Notes under the pieces: model-generated
What the model was told of the DNA's origin: nothing
Databases searched by the model: none
The model's input: the letters and a program-made list of their open reading frames with translations, nothing else
Shown: piece after piece, positions 636 to 42,343 of the stretch
Layout of the letters: each line of letters starts with the position of its first letter
Numbering within the stretch: the first letter of the stretch is position 1
Program-made: the position numbers and the translations under genes
Source: an uncultured Verrucomicrobiae bacterium
GTDB lineage: Bacteria > Chlamydiota > Chlamydiia > Chlamydiales > Rhabdochlamydiaceae
DNA: 64,000 bases
Reading direction: 5' to 3'
Assembly: GCA_963818965.1 (NCBI GenBank)
Contig: CAWFUG010000009.1
Location: forward strand, 98,212-162,211

Positions 636-791
636 CCAGTTGCAAAACTCGGGCACCCAGTAAAACCGCGCTTTTGAGCCATTTTGTCATCCCGCTACCG
701 AGCCCTACCCCTTGGGGTATGTGCTCGGTAGCGGGATGACAAAATGGCTCAAAATCATCGATTTTTCTGGGCACTCGAGTTTTGAAACCGG
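636..791. repeat. ~156-bp compound palindrome (perfect 32-nt inner arms, imperfect outer arms)
   Basis: Inner arms 672-703 TTTTGAGCCATTTTGTCATCCCGCTACCGAGC and 723-754 are exact reverse complements. Outer arms 636-658 and 769-791 match at about 18 of 23 positions. The loop contains TACCCCTTGGGGTA. It explains the spurious ORF 535..774. Confidence 0.85.
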
Positions 792-904
792 CTCGGTGGT
801 CTAATTTTGTTGCAAGTCCGTTGGTTGTAAATATTTTTTAACAACACGGTTGCATGTGTCAAAGTGTAGAGGATTTTGCGTTGTTTTTCTAGAAAAAATG
901 GGAT

Positions 905-1300
905 TTATTTTTTCTTCGGAGAGTGGCGTTGTTGGACTTTTCTCTGGGCTTGAGTTTGTTTCTGGAGCACTTTGGTCCAGCGGCCGCCCTCTTTGTGTGG
1001 GTAGGCAGGGGTAGAGTCGTTGGGGACCATACCGGGAGTCGTTCTTTTAGATACCCCTTTCTTCTTGGCAGGCCCCTTTTTGACAACGCCTTTTTTCATT
1101 GAGGCGCGTTGTTCTTCTTCTTTTTTGGCGACCTTTTTAGGGAGTTTTTTGAGTGTCTTCTTAGGTTTTAGCGTAGGGCTCGATTCCTTTATGGGCTTGA
1201 CGGGCACGGGTTTGACGAGATAGGCTTTTTGCGCTTTGTGTACTTCTTTTTTCATTTTTTTCTGGTTCTTCTGCGTCATAGGACGTTTGCCACGGTTCAT
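905..1300 (-). CDS. Lysine-rich, very basic small protein (histone-H1-like composition; possible nucleoid or DNA-binding protein)
   Basis: ORF 905..1480 was trimmed to the ATG at 1300 (MNRGKRPMTQKNQKKMKKEVHKAQKAYLVKPVPVKPIKE...KKLPKKVAKKEEE...KKGPAKKKGVSKR) because the upstream part overlaps the sulP start on the other strand. The function is inferred from composition only. Confidence 0.4.
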   Translation of the reverse strand: MNRGKRPMTQKNQKKMKKEVHKAQKAYLVKPVPVKPIKESSPTLKPKKTLKKLPKKVAKKEEEQRASMKKGVVKKGPAKKKGVSKRTTPGMVPNDSTPAYPHKEGGRWTKVLQKQTQAQRKVQQRHSPKKK

Positions 1301-1402
1301 AGAGCCTCGAGATGTAGTGTTTCTCGTGACTGTATCTGTTAATGATTTTTTTGAAAAGAGAGTACTTTGATTTGTCTTTTTGTTTGTGTATAGTTTGGAC
1401 GT

Positions 1403-3261
1403 ATGCGAAAAAACCCAAACTACCTCGCTTTCGTGCCGAAGCTCTTTACCTGTCTTTTTCAGGAGCCTTACAATTGGCACATGTTGAGAAAAGATCTCCT
1501 TGCGGGGGCTACAGTAGGGGTCGTAGCTCTTCCCTTGGCGATGGCATTCGCGATCGCATCGGGGGTCCCCCCAGAAAAGGGACTCTATACAGCCATCATC
1601 GCGGGATTTTTGATCTCATTATTCGGAGGGAGTCGAGTACAGATTGGAGGGCCGACGGGCGCCTTTGTCGTCATCGTCTATAGCATTGTCCAAAGGCAGG
1701 GGTATGAGGGGCTCCTCCTGGCTACTTTGCTTGCTGGAGTGATCCTTCTCATCGCCGGATTTGCGCGCTTAGGCACGTTGATTAAATACATCCCCTACCC
1801 GTTAGTGACGGGGTTCACCTCCGCGATTGCCCTCATCATCTTCTCCTCTCAGGTCAAAGATTTTTTCGGACTGCGATTAACTGAAGTTCCCGCCGATTTT
1901 CTTTCGAAGTGGAAGGCTTTTTTTCAGGCGGCAGGGACGGGAGATCTGTGGACTTTAGGGGTGAGTGCTTCGACTCTTGCGCTGATTCTCTTCATCCGCC
2001 GATTTTTTCCGAAGATTCCTTGGGGAATCGTCTCCATCGGCGTAATTACTCTTCTCGTCGCTTTGTTCCACATTCCTGTCGAGACGATTCAGAAGCGCTT
2101 TGGAGAGATTCCACACATGTTGCCGACACCCGGGCTTATACCCCACTCGGTCAGAAACTTGGAATTTGGGCTGCGTGAAAGCTCCCGCGATTCCACGATC
2201 GGGGAGGGGGCCAGTATTGAGGAAATACAGGCCCCTGCCCCGATCGTAGAATCCCGGGGGTTTGACGCGCCCAAATTCCAAGTTTCTGACCGAGTGGGGT
2301 ATACCCCTTTTTCTTGGGATTTCGCGAAGTTGCAGCAACTCTTTCCCGATGCGATGACGATCGCTTTACTCGCTGGAATAGAATCGCTCCTCTCTGCGGT
2401 GGTCGCCGATGGGATGATCGGGGGCGCCATCGATCGAACTGCGAACTCATCGCTCAGGGACTTGCTAACATCGGCTCTTGTTTTTTTGGAGGCATCCCTG
2501 CCACAGGGGCGATCGCTCGGACGGCTGTCAACATTAAGTCGGGCGGGAGAACTCCGATTGCTGGGATCGTGCATGCGGCCACGCTGCTTCTGATCATTTT
2601 GATGCTCTCTCCTGTCGTTAGCCTCATTCCCTTGGGCGGTCTGGCCGCTGTGCTCGTCATGATCTCCTGGGATATGAGTGAAATCAAACGATTCCGCCGC
2701 CTGTTTCAGGCGCCAGCAGGAGATATCGCTGTTTTACTGACCACTTTTTTCCTGACTATTTTCATCGATTTATCGGTTGCTGTCGCCATCGGGATGATCC
2801 TCGCAGCCTTTCTCTTCATCAGGAGAATGAGCGAATTATCCAAGGTCGTTCCGATGACCTCCCTGATGAAAGAGGATGAGGAGGAGATAGAAGACCCCGA
2901 TGCGATTTCCAACAAAACAATCCCTGCCTTAGTAGAGGTGTATGAGATCGATGGGCCTTTCTTTTTCGGGGTTGCAGACAGCCTGCAAAACCTGCTATTC
3001 CAGTTGGAAAAGCCTCCCAAAGTCTTCATTTTGCGGATGCGAAAAGTTCCCGTGATCGATGCCTCTGGACTGCATGCCTTAAATGAATTTTACGATCGCT
3101 GTATGAAACGGGATACGCAATTGATCTTATCAGGAGTACGCCGGGAACTCTACAACTCGATCCAGCAATATGGGATTGAGAAAAAAATTGGCCAGAAAAA
3201 TATCGTCTCCCATATCGATGCGGCTCTAAGGCGCGCCGAAGATCTCCTCAAATCTGTTTAG
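1403..3261 (+). pseudogene. SulP-family anion transporter with C-terminal STAS domain. The frame is broken once at a G-run and the gene carries an in-frame palindromic insert (pseudogene or 1-nt assembly error).
   Basis: ORFs 1403..2593 and 2314..3261 together give a full SulP: LRKDLLAGATVGVVALPLAMAFAIASG; AGIESLLSAVVADGMIGG then, in the next frame, RHRSNCELIAQGLANIGSCFFGGIPATGAIARTAVNIKSGGRTP; and a STAS-like tail. Reading the GGGGG at 2420-2424 as six G restores ...DGMIGGRHRSN... Confidence 0.8.
2138..2302. repeat. 165-bp palindromic element lying in frame inside sulP
   Basis: Positions 2138-2170 ATACCCCACTCGGTCAGAAACTTGGAATTTGGG are the exact reverse complement of 2270-2302. The interior is an imperfect palindrome. 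The length is 55 codons with no stop in the sulP frame. Confidence 0.85.
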
Positions 3262-4134
3262 TACTTTCCTGGGTGAGATGAAGTGACGCCACTGGGTGTT
3301 CTTAAATCTCGAAGGGGGAAGCCACCACGGGGGTAGGGCGAGTTGTCCGCGCTTCCAGTCGGGGCGCCACAGACGCATCCGTTTCTCATCGCTCGCGATT
3401 GTCACGGTGGGAAGATCTAGATTTGAGCCTAAATGTCCGAGAAGAGAATCATTTCCGATCACAAACCCCGATTCATAGACAAATGCGGCAAGTGCGCCTA
3501 AATTCGGAAAATCTATACTCTCAAATGCGTCGCATTTCCACTCCAAGCGTTCCTGAGGGCTCATACAAAAGATGGGGGAGAACCCCTTCGCGCACAGTTT
3601 CTTCGCTAGAGAAAAATAAGAAGAGAGCAGCCAGTTCTTCGCCGTCTCTCGGCTAAACGGGTGGAGGATGACCCGTTTTACGTATTTGCGATGTGTTAAA
3701 TGGACGGGGGGAGCGATCCCGTTGTTTTTGGAGGGAAATTTGAGCTGTAATAGGGTACCGATCGATTTACCGATGTTTTCCGCCATCGGTAGATTAGGAT
3801 CGAATACGAAATCATTGGGAGTTAAAGGGGCATGCTTGTGCGGGGAATAGGTCGGATAAAACATGCTGACGATCGGCCTCAGTTCTTTGAGGAATGTAGC
3901 GATCCGAGGAGAATTGTCATTCTCTACGACGATGAGATCAAAAGAAGAGAGGAGGGTCGTTGTCGGGTTTTGAAGAGGGGAGAGGCATTGCCCAGGAAAC
4001 CAAGAGGCGAGTTCGGGCAAGGGGTCGTGGAAGGTCGTGACATGATAGCCTGCCTTTTTCAGATGATGGGAGGCGATCATCATCAAGAGACCATCTCCAA
4101 TGCCCAAAGCGGGTAACACAGCAGCTTTTTTCAC
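3226..4134 (-). CDS. Glycosyltransferase family 9-like protein (heptosyltransferase-like)
   Basis: 302-aa ORF with a GTG start. The N-terminal LPALGIGDGLLMM and C-terminal GFVIGNDSLLGHLGSNLDLPTVTI resemble GT9 signatures. It has a 36-nt convergent overlap with the sulP 3' end. Confidence 0.55.
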   Translation of the reverse strand: MKKAAVLPALGIGDGLLMMIASHHLKKAGYHVTTFHDPLPELASWFPGQCLSPLQNPTTTLLSSFDLIVVENDNSPRIATFLKELRPIVSMFYPTYSPHKHAPLTPNDFVFDPNLPMAENIGKSIGTLLQLKFPSKNNGIAPPVHLTHRKYVKRVILHPFSRETAKNWLLSSYFSLAKKLCAKGFSPIFCMSPQERLEWKCDAFESIDFPNLGALAAFVYESGFVIGNDSLLGHLGSNLDLPTVTIASDEKRMRLWRPDWKRGQLALPPWWLPPSRFKNTQWRHFISPRKVLNRFEEIFGAP

Positions 4135-34913: not shown

Positions 34914-36779
34914 ATGTCAAAAGTAAGATTAAAAATTTACAATACAGAGACGCGGGAAAAGGAAGAGGTCATCGCGAAAGAGGGCAATCTGATCCGGATG
35001 TACACCTGCGGGCCTACGGTCTATAACTTTGCCCATATCGGCAATTTCCGCACCTATGTCTTTGAAGATCTTTTGCGCCGGACGTTGCAAATTCTTCGGA
35101 TTTGAAGTCATCCAGGCGATGAATCTAACGGATGTCGATGACAAGACGATCAAAGGTGCTCTTGAAGAGAAAGATCTCCCTCGAAGCGTTTACAGAGCCG
35201 CTTCAAGAGAGCTTTTTTCGAAGATCTTCAGACCTTGAACATCGAGCCGTGGAACACTATCCGGCAGCGACCGATTATATTCCCGAAATGATCGAGATCA
35301 TCGAAAAACTCGTGAAAGAAGGAACCGCTTACAAGGCGGCGGATGGCAGCATCTATTTTGCAATCCGCAATTTCCCTCCTATGGCCGACTTATCCCATCT
35401 GCATCTGAGTGAGCTCAAAGAAGGCGCCTCTGAGCGTCTCATCCGATGAGTATGACAAAGAGAATGCGAGCGATTTTGTCCTCTGGAAGGCTTACGATCG
35501 AGAGCGAGACGGGGAGATCTTCTGGGAGAGCCCCTTTGGCACGGGGCCGCCCGGGCTGGCATATCGAATGTTCTGCAATGGCGATGAAGCTCCTCGGCGA
35601 GACAATCGATATCCATGTCGGCGGGGTCGATAACATGTTTCCCCACCATGAAAATGAGATCGCCCAATCGGAAGCTTGCACTTGCTGCCGCTTTGTGCGG
35701 TACTGGATGCATGCAGAGCATCTCCTCGTCGACCACAAAAAAATGTCCAAGAGCCTGGGCAATTTCTTTACCTTGCGCGATCTGCTCGAAAAAGGGTACA
35801 GCGGTAAAGAGGTGCGCTATATGCTCTTACAAACCCACTACCGCACCCAGCTCAATTTCACTTTTACAGGCTTAAGCAGTGTACGCGCCACTTTGGAGCG
35901 GTTGAGCGATTTCATCCGCCGTTTGCAGGCAATTCGGCATGAAAAGATGCATAAAGCGCTCGACATCATTCTAGAGAAAGCCCTCCCTGAGGGCTCGGAC
36001 AAAAACAGATCAGAGAAAGGATCCTCTTTGACATGCAGGCAGAGAAAGCTAAAGATATCTTGGATCCCGCTCTTTTGGAGCCGATCTTAGAGCGCTCTCT
36101 TGCCAAAGTAGAAAAAAAGGGAAGTGTCTTGCAGCGCATTTTAGCAGAAACCAAAGAAGTGAAGGAAAAAGCAGCGTTAAAGGCTGTTTTGGATCGCTCC
36201 CTACTCGATCCTGCAGTCGCCCAAAAAGTCATCAGTCAAGTCGTCCACAAGGTACGCGATGAAAAAAATCGAGACCTACTCGATCCCCTCATCGTAGCGC
36301 CCATCTTGCAAAAGATGCTGTATGAACAACGCACTGAAGACCAAAAAGTCGTCGAAAAAGTCACACGCGATCTCAAGGTAAAAAGAGACCACGGATTCGT
36401 CTTACCGATCATCGAAAAGACGATCCAGGAGTTTGCAATGGCTCTTGGCGATGATTTGAATATCTCTGCTGCTTTAGCAGCCCTTTTCGATATGGTCCGA
36501 GAGGTAAATACCCTGTGCGATCAAGACAAGATCGGGATATCAGAGTCGGAAGATGTTCTCGATTGTCTCAAAAAAATCGATCAGGTCTTAGGCGTGTTGC
36601 CTTTGGAAGCACAAGAAGAGGAGATCCCTATAGAGCTGGTGAATGCGCTGCATCGCCGAGAGGTCGCTCGCGCGGAAAAGAATTGGCAGGTAGCAGATGA
36701 GTGCCGCGCCCTCATTGAGAAGGCCGGATATTTCATCGAAGACACCCCACAGGGTGCAAGACTAAAGAGGCGAGAATGA
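34914..36779 (+). pseudogene. cysS: Cysteinyl-tRNA synthetase interrupted by about 7 single-nucleotide frame shifts (pseudogene or poor local sequence quality)
   Basis: Pieces are spread over three frames: [27 protein letters not shown] | [28 protein letters not shown] | ISLEAFTEPLQESFF | EDLQTLNIEP | VEHYPAATDYIPEMI... | [18 protein letters not shown]...FG | [12 protein letters not shown]...[11 protein letters not shown]...KMSKSLGN... | C-terminal ...DDLNISAALAALFDMVREVN. Confidence 0.85.
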
Positions 36780-37115: not shown

Positions 37116-38694
<1,579 letters not shown>

Positions 38695-38938: not shown

Positions 38939-39092
38939 GCGCTTTTGCTGCACATCCACTTCGCAGTTTATGGCCGAGTGCGGAGTGCGGCGTATTCAAT
39001 AAATAGTTAAATATTAGGGTCTTGCGAACAAACGGGGAGTCGGGCTTGATGAGAAAATGCTTTTAGTGGCATAATTGGAGGTTACCATAGGA

Positions 39093-39476
39093 ATGACGAT
39101 GGGAAGTCAAGATCGACAATTGGTATACATTGGTTCCTCTAGGAGAGATGTTTCGAAGTTTCCTCAGGATGTACAGGATCTTTTTTCAGATGCTTTGATG
39201 CTAGCTCTCATTGGGAAAACTCATAGGGATGCAAAACCCTTTAAGCATCATGGAAGCGGTGTATTTGAGGTAACAGGGGATTATCGAAGTAGTACTTTTA
39301 GAGAGATCTACACCGTGCGATATCCTGAGGTTGTTTATGTTATTCATATTTTTCAGAAAAAAAGCAAAAAGGGGAAAGAAACCCCTAAAGAAGACATAGA
39401 GTTAATTGAGAAAAGGCTCAAGTGGGCTGAACAGCTCTACAAGGAGACATATGGCAAAAAAAGTAAGAAAAAGTAA
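39093..39476 (+). CDS. higB: Type II toxin, RelE/HigB superfamily (Gp49/DUF891-like)
   Basis: VYIGSSRRDVSKFPQDVQDLF...KPFKHHGSGVFEV...FREIYTVRYPEVVYVIHIFQKKSKKGKETPKEDIELIEKRLK. The ATG at 39093 is preceded by GGAG. Confidence 0.75.
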   Translation: MTMGSQDRQLVYIGSSRRDVSKFPQDVQDLFSDALMLALIGKTHRDAKPFKHHGSGVFEVTGDYRSSTFREIYTVRYPEVVYVIHIFQKKSKKGKETPKEDIELIEKRLKWAEQLYKETYGKKSKKK

Positions 39477-39825
39477 AAAGTTCGAAGAAATCGAATACGA
39501 GGTTAGCTCTGGGAACGTCTTCCAAGATTTTGGTTATGCAAATCCAGAGGAAGCTAAAGCAAAATGGGATCTTGCCTTTCTAATCAGATCAGTCATAGAG
39601 GATAAAGAGTTAACTCAGGATATGGCTGCTGAATTGATGGGAATAGACCAGCCAAAAGTATCGAAGATCACAAGAGGGATTCTTTCTGAATTTACTATTG
39701 AGCGATTGATGCGCTATTTAGTTGCGTTGGGGATAGACATTGAAATTAAGCCAAAAGAGAAAAAGACTGTAGTCCCTTCAATTCACGTTGGACAAAGCAA
39801 TTTAAGAAGATCCATCAGAGCCTGA
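39451..39825 (+). CDS. higA: XRE-family HTH antitoxin (HigA-like)
   Basis: SSGNVFQDFGYANPEEAKAKWDLAFLIRSVIEDKELTQDMAAELMGIDQPKVSKITRGILSEFTIERLMRYLVALG. It overlaps the toxin 3' end by 26 nt. Confidence 0.75.
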   Translation: MAKKVRKSKKFEEIEYEVSSGNVFQDFGYANPEEAKAKWDLAFLIRSVIEDKELTQDMAAELMGIDQPKVSKITRGILSEFTIERLMRYLVALGIDIEIKPKEKKTVVPSIHVGQSNLRRSIRA

Positions 39826-39936: not shown

Positions 39937-40968
39937 CTATGAGGGGAGGCGGAACAGAAAGGCGCTGTCGGCGATGAGCGCGTCCGTTGCCTCTTGCATA
40001 GACTGGTTGAACTGATCGTAGGCAGCTTCTGGATCTTTTTGGACCTCACCCAGGAAGTGTCCGGCGATGGCAGCGCCTGTAAGGGCTGTGTTTGCGCCCA
40101 TGCCTTGGAAAAAACTCGCTGAAGCGGCAGCTTCACCGATGAGAAGAGCAGAGTGGTCTGTGTGGGAAAATGTCTTGGTTTGGGAGAGTTGAATCGGCAC
40201 TTCGGGGAGGATAAAGCAATCGCGTTGTTCTAGGGCGTCAGCTTCTCCATGCCACCCTTGGGAGCGCAGAGCTTCTTGGAGGGGAACCTTTGTCGCGGAA
40301 TCGGGGAACTGGGTAAAGACGACGCTGACGGAGGGGGTTTTGATTCTGCGCACGAATCCACTACCGAGAGAGACAGGGTCGGTGACGTCGATTGCAGGGG
40401 AAGTAGGGTCTTCAGAGCAGTGCACCACGGCGCCTTCTCCTATTGCTGTGCCGAAGATCTGTTTTTCAACTCCTAAGCACTCTCGGACGCGGCTATGGGT
40501 GCCATCGGCTCCGACGATGATGTCGTAAGAAAAATGCTTTGGCCCTTGTGCAGTGGAAATGAGGGCTGTGTGCTCAGGACCAAAATCGACAAATTCCCCT
40601 TGGATCTTTTTGATTCCTAGAGCTTGGACTTTTTGATCGAGTGCGGTTTCTAAGGCGTTGATGGGGATAAGACCGACAGAGAAATCTTCAGTAAGGGACA
40701 TGGTATGGAGGGACGGGGACTCGACCTGCCATTTTTTAAGCAGTTTTAGAGAGCTATCGAGTAGAAGCAGTGTCTGTTCCCTCGAGTAGGCATCCCGTTT
40801 TTCGATGAGCGTGACGTCATAGCCTCTTTCCTTGGCTTCCAAGGCAACGCCGAGACCAGCGGGTCCTCCACCGATGATCAGAAGCGAGGGAGGCAATTGC
40901 TGATCCTGGGCAAATAGAAAGACACAAAGAGAAAGGGAAAGGAGGGTGCCGATGATGCTTCGTTTCAT
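39937..40968 (-). CDS. FAD-dependent oxidoreductase/monooxygenase with signal peptide
   Basis: MKRSIIGTLLSLSLCVFLFAQ (signal); LLIIGGGPAGLGVALEAKERGYDVTLIEKR (dinucleotide-binding GxGxxG plus acidic residue); GADGTHSRVR. Confidence 0.75.
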   Translation of the reverse strand: MKRSIIGTLLSLSLCVFLFAQDQQLPPSLLIIGGGPAGLGVALEAKERGYDVTLIEKRDAYSREQTLLLLDSSLKLLKKWQVESPSLHTMSLTEDFSVGLIPINALETALDQKVQALGIKKIQGEFVDFGPEHTALISTAQGPKHFSYDIIVGADGTHSRVRECLGVEKQIFGTAIGEGAVVHCSEDPTSPAIDVTDPVSLGSGFVRRIKTPSVSVVFTQFPDSATKVPLQEALRSQGWHGEADALEQRDCFILPEVPIQLSQTKTFSHTDHSALLIGEAAASASFFQGMGANTALTGAAIAGHFLGEVQKDPEAAYDQFNQSMQEATDALIADSAFLFRLPS

Positions 40969-41065
40969 TGATGACCTTTTGTTTTAAGGCAAAAAGTCTA
41001 TGACAGAAAGCGCTTTTTCTCATAGAGAAAAAGCGTTTTTAGTGTTAAGTAAAAATTTTCCAAGC

Positions 41066-41932
41066 TTAGATTTTTAAATTTTTGGCAAATGCGTAACTAA
41101 TAAGGGCCATAGATTCGCTATTTTTATAGGCAGTTTCTTGGTGAGAGAGTTCTAATAATTTTTTGCCGCCATCTGTTTTGGTTTTATTCGCTATAAGTTC
41201 TAAAACTTTTTTTTCAGAGTCGCTGAAAATGCTTAAATCTGCGGGTTTGCTCGTTTTAAGAGTGTGCCCTTTTGCTCGAATTAACTCCCCTTCATGAATC
41301 ATGAAATAGATGAGATTTTCATATTGTTGAGGACAAGGACCATACTCTAAATGAGCATATCTCGCACCAGTAATGCTAGTGCCGTATGATTTATAATGCA
41401 AAAAGTCTGCATAAAACAATGCTTTGTTTAAAAACAGGGGGCTAGTGGTGTATTTTATAAGATATCGAACTGCTTGTTTAAAAAGTTCCCAGCTAAAACG
41501 TCGATTCCCACTGTATATGTCGGGAGGATGACTTTTCCAATGAACATTGATAGCACTTAATTCTGCATAGCCTTCATCGCATTTTAGTCTGATGTGTTCA
41601 TCTTGGCCTACATCTTGTACGAAATAAGTTTCCCAACGTTTGATGCTGGCTTCGCCCACCTTTAAATAATTGGCAAATGCTGCTTGTGACATCCCAAATG
41701 AGTTGCGAAAATGGATGATTTCCTCAGAGGTTAACAATCCCTGTTTTTTCCGGTATGCATCTGCGGCAGCCTTTCTCAGTTCGCTCATCTGTTCATCATT
41801 CATAAGATGAGTATGACACTGCATGCAGACCATCGCTGATACGATGACCTCGACTTCCTCTCCTTTAATTTCAGGAGTGAAGCGGCATTTTTTTTCTTCA
41901 AATTTATCCCCGTCGCAATTGAGACACCTCAT
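41066..41932 (-). CDS. Antitoxin candidate: MqsA-like zinc-ribbon and HTH domains fused to a C-terminal Panacea (DUF4065/SocA-like) domain
   Basis: MRCLNCDG...VCMQCHTHLM (CxxC...CxxC), LTSEEIIHFRNSFGMSQAAFANYLKVGEASIKRWE (HTH), then LFLNKALFYADFLHYKSYGTSITGARYAHLEYGPCP (Panacea-like core). Confidence 0.65.
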   Translation of the reverse strand: MRCLNCDGDKFEEKKCRFTPEIKGEEVEVIVSAMVCMQCHTHLMNDEQMSELRKAAADAYRKKQGLLTSEEIIHFRNSFGMSQAAFANYLKVGEASIKRWETYFVQDVGQDEHIRLKCDEGYAELSAINVHWKSHPPDIYSGNRRFSWELFKQAVRYLIKYTTSPLFLNKALFYADFLHYKSYGTSITGARYAHLEYGPCPQQYENLIYFMIHEGELIRAKGHTLKTSKPADLSIFSDSEKKVLELIANKTKTDGGKKLLELSHQETAYKNSESMALISYAFAKNLKI

Positions 41933-42303
41933 GACGACTCCTTACTTTTGTGTAGAGATACGTAATAGTATCTGTTTTCTCTGAGAGCAAATTTAATGTA
42001 CATTTTCTTCCTTAGTTTTTTACTGTCCCAGCAGAAGGCAAAAAGTTCTCGGTTTTCGATGGTTTTCTCGTAGGACTTTTGAGGAGGCTTTCCCCCGGCA
42101 TAATCCCCAGGGCAAATTTCGTCCAAGAGCTCTAGGATTAATTCCCAAACCTGGTTAGGAGATTCTATTTCTAAGTCGTAGAGTTCTCCTGTTGCCTTAT
42201 TGAGATTTGCGTATAAACCATTCTGCTTGATCAAAGCGGCCTTTGCTGCCTTAATCTGTCTATCCAGCTCTCTATCTGTCGGACGGTTACAGATCATTCG
42301 CAT
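41929..42303 (-). CDS. Toxin candidate, MqsR-like
   Basis: 124-aa ORF immediately upstream with an ATGA overlap onto the antitoxin gene. The C-terminal KKMYIKFALRENRYYYVSLHKSK resembles the MqsR C-terminus (QVYLKITVIHDVLIVSFKEK). Toxin-first gene order matches mqsRA. Confidence 0.5.
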   Translation of the reverse strand: MRMICNRPTDRELDRQIKAAKAALIKQNGLYANLNKATGELYDLEIESPNQVWELILELLDEICPGDYAGGKPPQKSYEKTIENRELFAFCWDSKKLRKKMYIKFALRENRYYYVSLHKSKESS

Positions 42304-42312
42304 CCCAGCTCA

Positions 42313-42343
42313 ATTAATAGTATCAAATGATACCGCAAGTCAA
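42313..42343 (-). promoter_or_regulatory. Candidate promoter with an embedded operator-like palindrome for the MqsR-like/PanA operon
   Basis: The minus strand reads TTGACT-18 nt-TATTAA. The spacer contains GTATCATTTGATAC (42320-42333), a 5-bp inverted repeat. Confidence 0.35.

Follow-up and report, generated by a model that had tools for sequence, protein, structure and literature searches.

A divergent MqsR-like toxin and an MqsA-Panacea antitoxin encoded by an intact two-gene module with a conserved predicted operator in environmental Chlamydiota

Do two overlapping genes in an environmental chlamydial genome encode a toxin and its antitoxin and, if so, which part of a multi-domain antitoxin would hold the toxin? 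The question is raised by positions 41,066 to 42,343 of a 64,000-nucleotide (nt) stretch of contig CAWFUG010000009.1 (hereafter the window) from an uncultured Verrucomicrobiae bacterium that GTDB places in the Rhabdochlamydiaceae, where a short open reading frame (ORF) runs into a gene for a protein of 288 amino acids (aa). The locus is an intact two-gene toxin-antitoxin (TA) module with its own strongly conserved promoter-operator, and it adds a new member to a catalogued PanAT family, in which a small MqsR-like protein precedes an antitoxin that joins an MqsA core to a Panacea domain. A TA function of some kind is highly probable. Our preferred reading, to which we give a probability of about 0.6, is that of an autoregulated type II TA operon with an MqsR-fold ribonuclease (RNase) as toxin and the zinc ribbon of the antitoxin as the primary toxin binder. 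An original prediction, made from the letters of the window, had given the positions of the two genes, their toxin-first order and their overlap at ATGA, all of which agree with the sequence, and the peptides that it quoted, LNKALFYADFLHYKSYGTSITGARYAHLEYGPCP and MYIKFALRENRYYYVSLHKSK, were both found in the window proteins. The 124-aa small ORF that it described is present from the first ATG (41929-42303, minus strand); homologues of the small protein, however, begin four residues ahead of a conserved Arg-Pro, at the second ATG (42297), and we therefore placed the start of the toxin there, at a length of 122 aa. Each of the two proteins had more than 300 homologue clusters, and Rfam and tRNA scans found no non-coding RNA in or near the locus.

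The 288-aa protein had been proposed to carry the MqsA architecture, a zinc ribbon followed by an XRE-type helix-turn-helix (HTH), and both profile and structural comparisons bore this out. Over residues 3-105 it scored 75.3 bits against TIGR03830, the NCBIfam model of the MqsA family (cutoff 61.8), and it reached 20.7 bits against the Pfam MqsA model PF15731, below the cutoff of 30, a model that 53 of 56 family members matched at E<=0.001. A 30-homologue profile aligned in hhalign with E. coli MqsA (sequence taken from NC_000913), which was colinear with residues 1-107 of the antitoxin (probability 84%, E 7e-6). In the AlphaFold model of the antitoxin (predicted local distance difference test, pLDDT, 78), a beta-ribbon was followed by an HTH region made of helices and, beyond a linker of low pLDDT (residues 121-133), by a C-terminal domain that was likewise helical. 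The top Foldseek matches of the model were full-length MqsA (3GN5; E 1e-4, probability 1.0) and then the MqsA N-domain in 3GA8 and 3HI2_A, to which the zinc-ribbon part had a target-based template modelling score, TM(target), of 0.55-0.59. The Panacea/DUF4065 domain that had been predicted to follow was recovered by Pfam as a full-length match, SocA_Panacea (PF13274) covering residues 168-270 with model positions 1-113 of 113 at 64.5 bits (cutoff 25.7). The N-terminal half of this domain was very strongly conserved.

Comparisons across related loci drew on 80 genome loci found with the antitoxin as seed, 4 loci from one protein look-up and 80 metagenome loci seeded with a loop motif of the toxin, and they fell into a chlamydial clade and a more distant one (L098-L177). 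In the homologue alignment C3, C6, C36 and C39 of the zinc ribbon were invariant across the chlamydial clade. The first 12 residues of the distant partners mostly held a first zinc knuckle of the form C-P-x-G-H as against the chlamydial C-x-x-C, which would imply a Cys/His/Cys/Cys ligand set. The HTH was the most conserved block of the antitoxin, and A95, S96, K98, R99, W100 and E101 were invariant in both clades. Asn97 and Arg101 are DNA-contacting residues in the MqsA-DNA structure, Asn97 contacting bases; in the hhalign alignment Arg101 is kept as Arg99 of the window antitoxin and Asn97 corresponds to Ala95.

That the small protein is MqsR-like, as originally predicted, was supported along four lines, none of them a direct match to a Pfam or NCBIfam model. 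Firstly, its AlphaFold 2 model (pLDDT 83.6), with three helices and a four-stranded sheet, had MqsR as its best match in the PDB (3HI2_B/D; Foldseek probability 0.99-1.0, TM(target) 0.63-0.70), and the RelE-type toxins HigB2, YafQ and HP0894 ranked after it. Secondly, a 73-sequence profile of the toxin family aligned in hhalign with a 38-sequence MqsR profile at a probability of 85% (E 6e-6; 90 columns, MqsR residues 8-97); this signal arose only with profiles on both sides, hhalign against the single E. coli MqsR sequence being negative or weak and the toxin profile not matching MqsR among PDB sequences. Thirdly, MqsR_toxin (PF15723) was the sole recurrent Pfam match among the relatives, found below threshold in 11 of 73 (best E 0.0042), with two for the next family. 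The fourth line is the partner protein, which is MqsA. An exhaustive profile search gave the toxin family a size of 365 representatives at 50% clustering.

The essential catalytic residues of MqsR are Lys56 and Tyr81 (PMC9636575). The profile alignment set MqsR Y81-L-K83 against Y100-I-K102 and MqsR V-S94-F-K96 against V-S114-L-H116, and Y100, K102, S114 and H116 were near-invariant in the toxin family, the counterpart of the catalytic tyrosine being kept in 68 of 73 relatives and the histidine at the position of Lys96 in 69. Lys56 itself aligned with a near-invariant glycine, beside which lies a family-specific loop, G-x-R-P-P-Q-K-S-Y-E. Because this lysine has no conserved counterpart while the tyrosine is kept, we set the toxin outside PF15723, and we regard it, on its profiles and its predicted fold, as a divergent MqsR-fold protein. 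His116 probably stands in for the lysine in the active site. As the Lys56 equivalent is not conserved, both the catalytic chemistry and RNase activity itself are inferences. A marginal likeness of toxin residues 48-116 (LWxxLLELL...RYYY) to the ETS domain, a eukaryotic winged helix, was also considered (phmmer E 0.11, profile E 0.028) and was rejected as chance: it was gone with a broader family profile, and the predicted fold is MqsR-like.

A promoter of the form TTGACT-18-TATTAA had been proposed for the operon, and it is both present and supported by conservation across loci. A generic promoter scan of the locus did not list these hexamers, since TATTAA is without the final T, and found promoter-like sites no commoner than in shuffled sequence; as the scan was thus no better than chance, the promoter call rests on cross-locus conservation and not on a consensus score. 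Between the two boxes lies the palindrome GTATC-ATTT-GATAC (42333-42320), a 14-nt sequence that occurs once in the 64-kb window where 0.28 occurrences would be expected even with one mismatch allowed. In the chlamydial clade, 54 of 58 non-identical upstream regions had GGTATCATaTGATGC-TAtAAT 33-39 nt before the start codon, with a TTG that preceded the -10 box by about 18 nt, and information content across these regions was maximal exactly at the palindrome and the -10 box. The promoter of the distant clade read TTGACA-aa-GTATCAATTGATAC-TATAAT and was matched as a regular expression in 60 of 76 metagenome loci. Of the 16 loci missed, 15 ended in GTATCAATTG, because the start-codon picker had halted at a TTG within the palindrome; judged by these sequence ends, the palindrome is probably present in 75 of the 76 loci, and in at least 60.

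The family consensus of the palindrome was GTATCAwwTGATRC, conserved over about 130 loci in two clades, although the proteins of the two are only about 30-50% identical, those of the distant clade being about 30-45% identical to the window proteins. It had been put forward as a candidate autoregulatory operator, and its recurrence at an equivalent place in the promoters of 54 of 58 chlamydial loci and of the distant clade strengthens that proposal: this 14-mer, non-coding, more deeply conserved than the proteins and fixed in its place in the promoter, very probably serves as the autoregulatory operator that the antitoxin HTH recognises. The distance between the -10 box and the gene differed between the clades. 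TATAAT ended 2-4 nt before the apparent ATG in the distant clade (e.g. ...GATACTATAATAAATG) and 16-20 nt before it in the chlamydial clade, and the short gap suggests either a leaderless gene or a mis-called start.

How the antitoxin would work can be approached through the partners that accompany this toxin family. A toxin homologue lay directly upstream of the antitoxin, tightly coupled to it, in about 75 of 84 loci. All 55 complete metagenomic partners (267-300 aa), a sample seeded with the toxin, carried Panacea, and 53 of them also matched MqsA_antitoxin (PF15731, E<=0.001); the MqsA-Panacea fusion is therefore the rule for the toxin family and not an oddity. Other arrangements occurred in two loci. 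In L087 the toxin relative was followed by a plain 148-aa MqsA, and in L092 by a 275-aa protein whose residues 1-118 were 40% identical to the window antitoxin (hhalign probability 99.3%), whose C-terminal half was unrelated, and which was followed by a SecB-like gene. The L092 genes (642-3519) thus stand in the order toxin, MqsA-core antitoxin and SecB-like chaperone, resembling toxin-antitoxin-chaperone (TAC) systems, and a PglZ-domain (BREX-type) gene lies directly downstream. Across the sequences compared, the MqsA core is the constant partner of the toxin family, with a C-terminal module that varies.

In the mechanism that we propose, the first gene would produce an MqsR-fold endoribonuclease that keeps Y100 and K102, has H116 for Lys96 and is without a conserved Lys56. 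The second gene, presumably translationally coupled to the first through the ATGA overlap, would supply an antitoxin in which an MqsA zinc ribbon and an XRE HTH precede a Panacea domain at the C-terminus. By analogy with MqsRA and with validated PanAT pairs, the antitoxin would bind the toxin directly; complexes of antitoxin and toxin have been reported for the tested PanAs (PMC8832971). Primary contact with the toxin would most likely be made by the zinc ribbon, following the example of E. coli, in which the MqsA N-domain blocks the substrate site of MqsR (PMC9636575); Panacea would either contact the toxin at a second place or regulate how stable the antitoxin is. An HTH dimer would bind the GTATCAwwTGATAC palindrome that fills the spacer between the -35 and -10 boxes and would thereby repress its own promoter, as the conservation of the cis-element and the precedent of MqsA suggest. 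We favour the zinc ribbon as primary toxin binder because the MqsA core is constant and the C-terminal module variable, and the division of roles between zinc ribbon and Panacea is the weakest step of the mechanism.

Several observations weigh against this reading. The small protein had no match at E<=1 in Pfam or NCBIfam and none in PADLOC, the Foldseek E-values of its fold match to MqsR were modest (0.02-0.04), and the hhalign probability of 85% between the two families falls short of >95%. The position of MqsR Lys56 is taken by G68, a glycine in 70 of 73 relatives, with arginine or lysine at nearby position 70 in 46 of 73 (63%), in a stretch next to the loop insertion where the alignment is uncertain. 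Kurata et al. assayed a single MqsR-type PanAT pair, from Herbaspirillum, which proved toxic and was not neutralised in E. coli (PMC8832971). Lastly, Panacea was retained in 55 of 55 sampled partners, and because its retention is near-universal the domain could be the real neutraliser and not a dispensable add-on.

The same TA operon might then have Panacea as its sole neutraliser, with the MqsA part acting only in DNA binding and dimerisation and the zinc ribbon purely structural. Panacea does neutralise in the tested PanAT pairs, and the N-terminal HTH of many PanAs has been assigned to transcriptional control (PMC8832971); the domain was found in 56 of 56 partners scanned, and the strong conservation of its N-terminal half would suit such a role. 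The same toxin family, however, is accompanied by a plain MqsA in L087 and by a non-Panacea C-terminus and SecB in L092, and neutralisation at these loci therefore cannot depend on Panacea. The zinc-ribbon domain is, moreover, the MqsR-binding module in E. coli (3HI2; PMC9636575), and its zinc ligands were conserved throughout. We consider neutralisation by Panacea alone unlikely, though a serious contender to binding through the zinc ribbon.

It is also conceivable, if rather doubtful, that the zinc ribbon holds the toxin and that Panacea occupies a control slot which decides on toxin release, through antitoxin stability or the sensing of a trigger; the slot would then hold a chaperone-addiction tail, with SecB, in L092 and be empty in L087. 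If this were true, the role of Panacea would be regulatory and would differ from the direct neutralisation that has been described to date, and the three natural architectures, with Panacea, as in L092 and as in L087, would offer a ready-made comparison. We did not use the analogy with CapRel for a sensing role of Panacea, as Panacea proteins form a cluster separate from the CapRel C-terminal sensor in the CapRel paper.

A further way in which Panacea might act is as a SocA-like adaptor for proteolysis that hands the toxin over to ClpXP, as in a type VI-like system, with no inhibition by stable binding. PF13274 is the domain of the SocA family, and the NCBIfam SocA_antitoxin equivalog (NF047745) weakly matched residues 160-267. 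The match nevertheless scored 15.3 bits against a cutoff of 190, so the window antitoxin is not SocA itself, and the toxin is MqsR-like and not SocB-like. The tested PanAT pairs are type II and complex-forming (PMC8832971), and a tight, autoregulated operon suits type II logic; we judge delivery to ClpXP to be very improbable. Inhibition by direct binding within a type II operon remains our preferred account of the module.

Antitoxin relatives were present in 128 species-representative genomes, mostly of environmental Chlamydiota, covering Parachlamydiales, Anoxychlamydiales, Rhabdochlamydiaceae, Simkaniaceae and Waddliaceae, with a few Bdellovibrionota and other metagenome-assembled genomes (MAGs); among the relatives in these 128 genomes, no record was titled Chlamydiaceae. 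Near-identical chlamydial-type modules were also seen in MAGs titled Verrucomicrobiae, Melainabacteria, Dependentiae and Acidobacteria, titles that may reflect mislabelled bins or contig contamination and not true hosts. In the window, the GC content of the module was 35-42% against 50-59% in the flanks. Neither priA nor the FAD-enzyme gene was found near the module in any of 84 loci, and the module is therefore not an ancestral neighbour of priA. One 488-kb contig (CAVOSF010000005.1; loci L006 and L020) had two diverged copies of the module, with antitoxins 84% and 67% identical to that of the window. A scan of viral contigs with the antitoxin found no relative, PADLOC gave the locus no known defence-system match, and PHROGs matched only generic HTH families or families of unknown function. 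This distribution fits a horizontally mobile module.

The state of the toxin was scored in the 76 genome loci that had sufficient upstream DNA. It was intact in 61 and broken in 12: by in-frame internal deletion in three (L027, L077 and L085), by a nonsense codon in one (L057), by frameshift in seven (L008, L042, L044, L045, L053, L061 and L082) and by insertion in one (L024). In two to three further loci it had left no trace (L054 and L069, and L071, which is probably a slicing artefact). Assembly errors may account for some of the frameshifts, but they do not account for the in-frame deletions. Beside nearly all of the decayed toxins the 288-aa antitoxin was full length, the match in L061 ending at residue 233. 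In the three loci with internal deletions (about 150 nt upstream of position 4001) the toxin was reduced to about 25-55 codons with only its N- and C-terminal motifs, and both the operator and a full-length antitoxin were retained. Toxins that break while their antitoxins stay intact are what is predicted for a toxin with a protective partner.

This asymmetry bears on whether the module is a TA system at all. The small protein could instead be a non-toxic co-regulator or an accessory subunit of a three-domain transcription factor, given that it is without a direct match to a toxin-family model, that the equivalent of the catalytic Lys56 is missing, that the pair is unusually well conserved over environmental Chlamydiota and that the antitoxin persists alone in several genomes. 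Both its fold and its profile nevertheless tie the small protein to MqsR, and the gene order, overlap, autoregulatory layout, foreign composition, absence of synteny and multiple copies are TA-like. Decay that breaks the toxin and spares the antitoxin argues in the same direction, and the family has been predicted as a PanAT pair by Kurata et al. A non-toxic role for the small protein is accordingly improbable, and the TA module stands as the better description of the locus.

Four kinds of known system resemble the module. Kurata et al. (2022, PNAS, PMC8832971) gave GepA/DUF4065 the name Panacea, recorded MqsR-like proteins as the commonest recognised PanT (n=90) and noted an N-terminal HTH in 343 PanAs. 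Cluster pT61/T50 of their Dataset S1 comprises predicted pairs, marked 'notest', from Parachlamydiaceae bacterium HS-T3, Desulfacinum and Desulfonatronospira (PMC8832971). All three have an N-terminal region labelled 'HTH' and the toxin first, with a gap of -4 in two including HS-T3, whose entry consists of PanA WP_042103486.1 and toxin WP_042103485.1, and one T50 toxin had an HHpred match of 99.83% to a 'ygiT' PDB entry (PMC8832971). The T50 cluster and the window module are thus alike in having a chlamydial member, an N-terminal 'HTH' with Panacea, a toxin-first order and a 4-nt overlap; unlike our analysis, the catalogue has the label 'HTH' where we find a full MqsA, lists three members and says nothing of an operator or of how broad the family is. 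The 'ygiT' entry is presumably the MqsA-N:MqsR complex 3HI2. In our locus set, L050, from the HS-T3 assembly, has homologues 63% and 55% identical to the two window proteins, again with an overlap of -4. Its identification with WP_042103486.1 is circumstantial, resting on assembly, architecture and gap, as an exact look-up returned no accession.

E. coli MqsR/MqsA (b3022/b3021; 3HI2, 3GN5) shares with the window module a toxin-first operon, a zinc ribbon and then an XRE HTH colinear over residues 1-107, the MqsR fold and catalytic tyrosine in the toxin, and a palindrome in the promoter of its own operon. The E. coli antitoxin, however, has 131 aa against the 288 aa of the window antitoxin with its added Panacea, and the 122-aa window toxin differs from MqsR in a longer N-terminal helix, the G-x-R-P-P-Q-K-S-Y-E insertion, the lack of a conserved Lys56 and His116 for Lys96. 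The operators differ too: the mqsRA palindrome is ACCT-N-AGGT, whereas that of the window family is GTATCAwwTGATAC.

Makarova et al. (2009, PMC2701414) had described two YgiU/MqsR subfamilies, one paired with YgiT (zinc finger and HTH) and the other with HTH-GepA fusions. Like the window module, the HTH-GepA pairs (PMC2701414; Kurata cluster T2) have an MqsR-like toxin beside an N-terminal HTH fused to GepA/Panacea. They are described without a YgiT zinc finger, come mostly from Firmicutes phages and prophages, and have toxins that match the MqsR superfamily model directly; the window family, by contrast, joins a YgiT-type zinc finger with GepA, and the viral contigs scanned gave no member of it. 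In MqsRA-type TAC systems the antitoxin is made dependent on a chaperone by its C-terminal tail (Bordes et al. 2016, PMC5105189). TAC (PMC5105189) thus resembles the window antitoxin in having an extra C-terminal control module on an MqsA core, and the layout of L092 is identical to it, with a SecB-like third gene; the window antitoxin, however, has a folded Panacea domain where TAC antitoxins have a chaperone-addiction (ChAD) tail, and its gene is not followed by one for a chaperone. The original prediction had taken the fusion to be unusual and not previously seen in Chlamydiae. Neither part of this was supported, as MqsR-like toxins with HTH-GepA were known in 2009, a Parachlamydiaceae member is listed in Dataset S1 and the fusion was present in 55 of 55 partners.

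The features of the locus are collected in Table 1. A second TA-like pair lies 1.2 kb from the module (39075-39825, plus strand) in a GC trough of its own (about 39%). One of its members, a 133-aa Gp49/DUF891 protein of the HigB/RelE type, overlaps the other, which is an HTH_37/XRE protein; a host-like FAD-enzyme gene (39937-40968) stands between this pair and the module. Elsewhere in the window, the essential tRNA synthetase genes lysS (37116-38694, minus strand) and cysS (35132-36779, plus strand) are each split into at least three ORFs in different frames, the pieces covering model positions 2-95, 235-336 and 345-487 for lysS and 81-168, 194-330 and 341-465 for cysS. This splitting is due either to assembly indel errors or to pseudogenisation; the two TA genes in the same window are intact.

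Table 1. Positions of the module and its parts in the window
Feature	Position	Strand	Remarks
Terminator-like hairpin, T-rich tail	41011-41035	(-)	31 nt past antitoxin stop codon
Antitoxin gene, 288 aa	41066-41932	(-)	Start codon overlaps toxin stop as ATGA
Antitoxin residues 148-288, Panacea/SocA-like domain	41069-41491	(-)	Pfam match residues 168-270, nt 41123-41431
Antitoxin residues 66-120, XRE-type HTH (GMSQAAFANYLKVGEASIKRWETY)	41573-41737	(-)	Within TIGR03830 match
Antitoxin residues 1-63, MqsA-type zinc ribbon (C3, C6, C36, C39) and connecting helix	41744-41932	(-)	Cys invariant in chlamydial clade; Foldseek match to MqsA N-domain
Toxin gene, 122-aa divergent MqsR-like protein	41929-42297	(-)	Alternative upstream ATG at 42303
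-10 box TATTAA	42314-42319	(-)	Most relatives have TATAAT
Palindromic operator (predicted) GTATCATTTGATAC	42320-42333		In 18-nt promoter spacer, abuts -10 box
-35 box TTGACT	42338-42343	(-)	TTG at same spacing kept in related loci; TTGACA in distant clade

To the catalogued family this analysis adds that the region labelled 'HTH' is a complete MqsA, that the operator has a defined sequence, that the family is broad with the fusion as its norm, that the C-terminal module differs by lineage and that the toxin decays while the antitoxin persists. The antitoxin combines two modules each of which neutralises toxins elsewhere, and relatives lack or replace the second, so the question of which one acts here suits simple truncations. 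GTATCAwwTGATAC, more deeply conserved than the proteins that it accompanies, allows a precise and falsifiable prediction of the DNA that a new MqsA subfamily would bind. In the environmental Chlamydiota, an intracellular lineage, the recurrent loss of the toxin illustrates TA decay cleanly.

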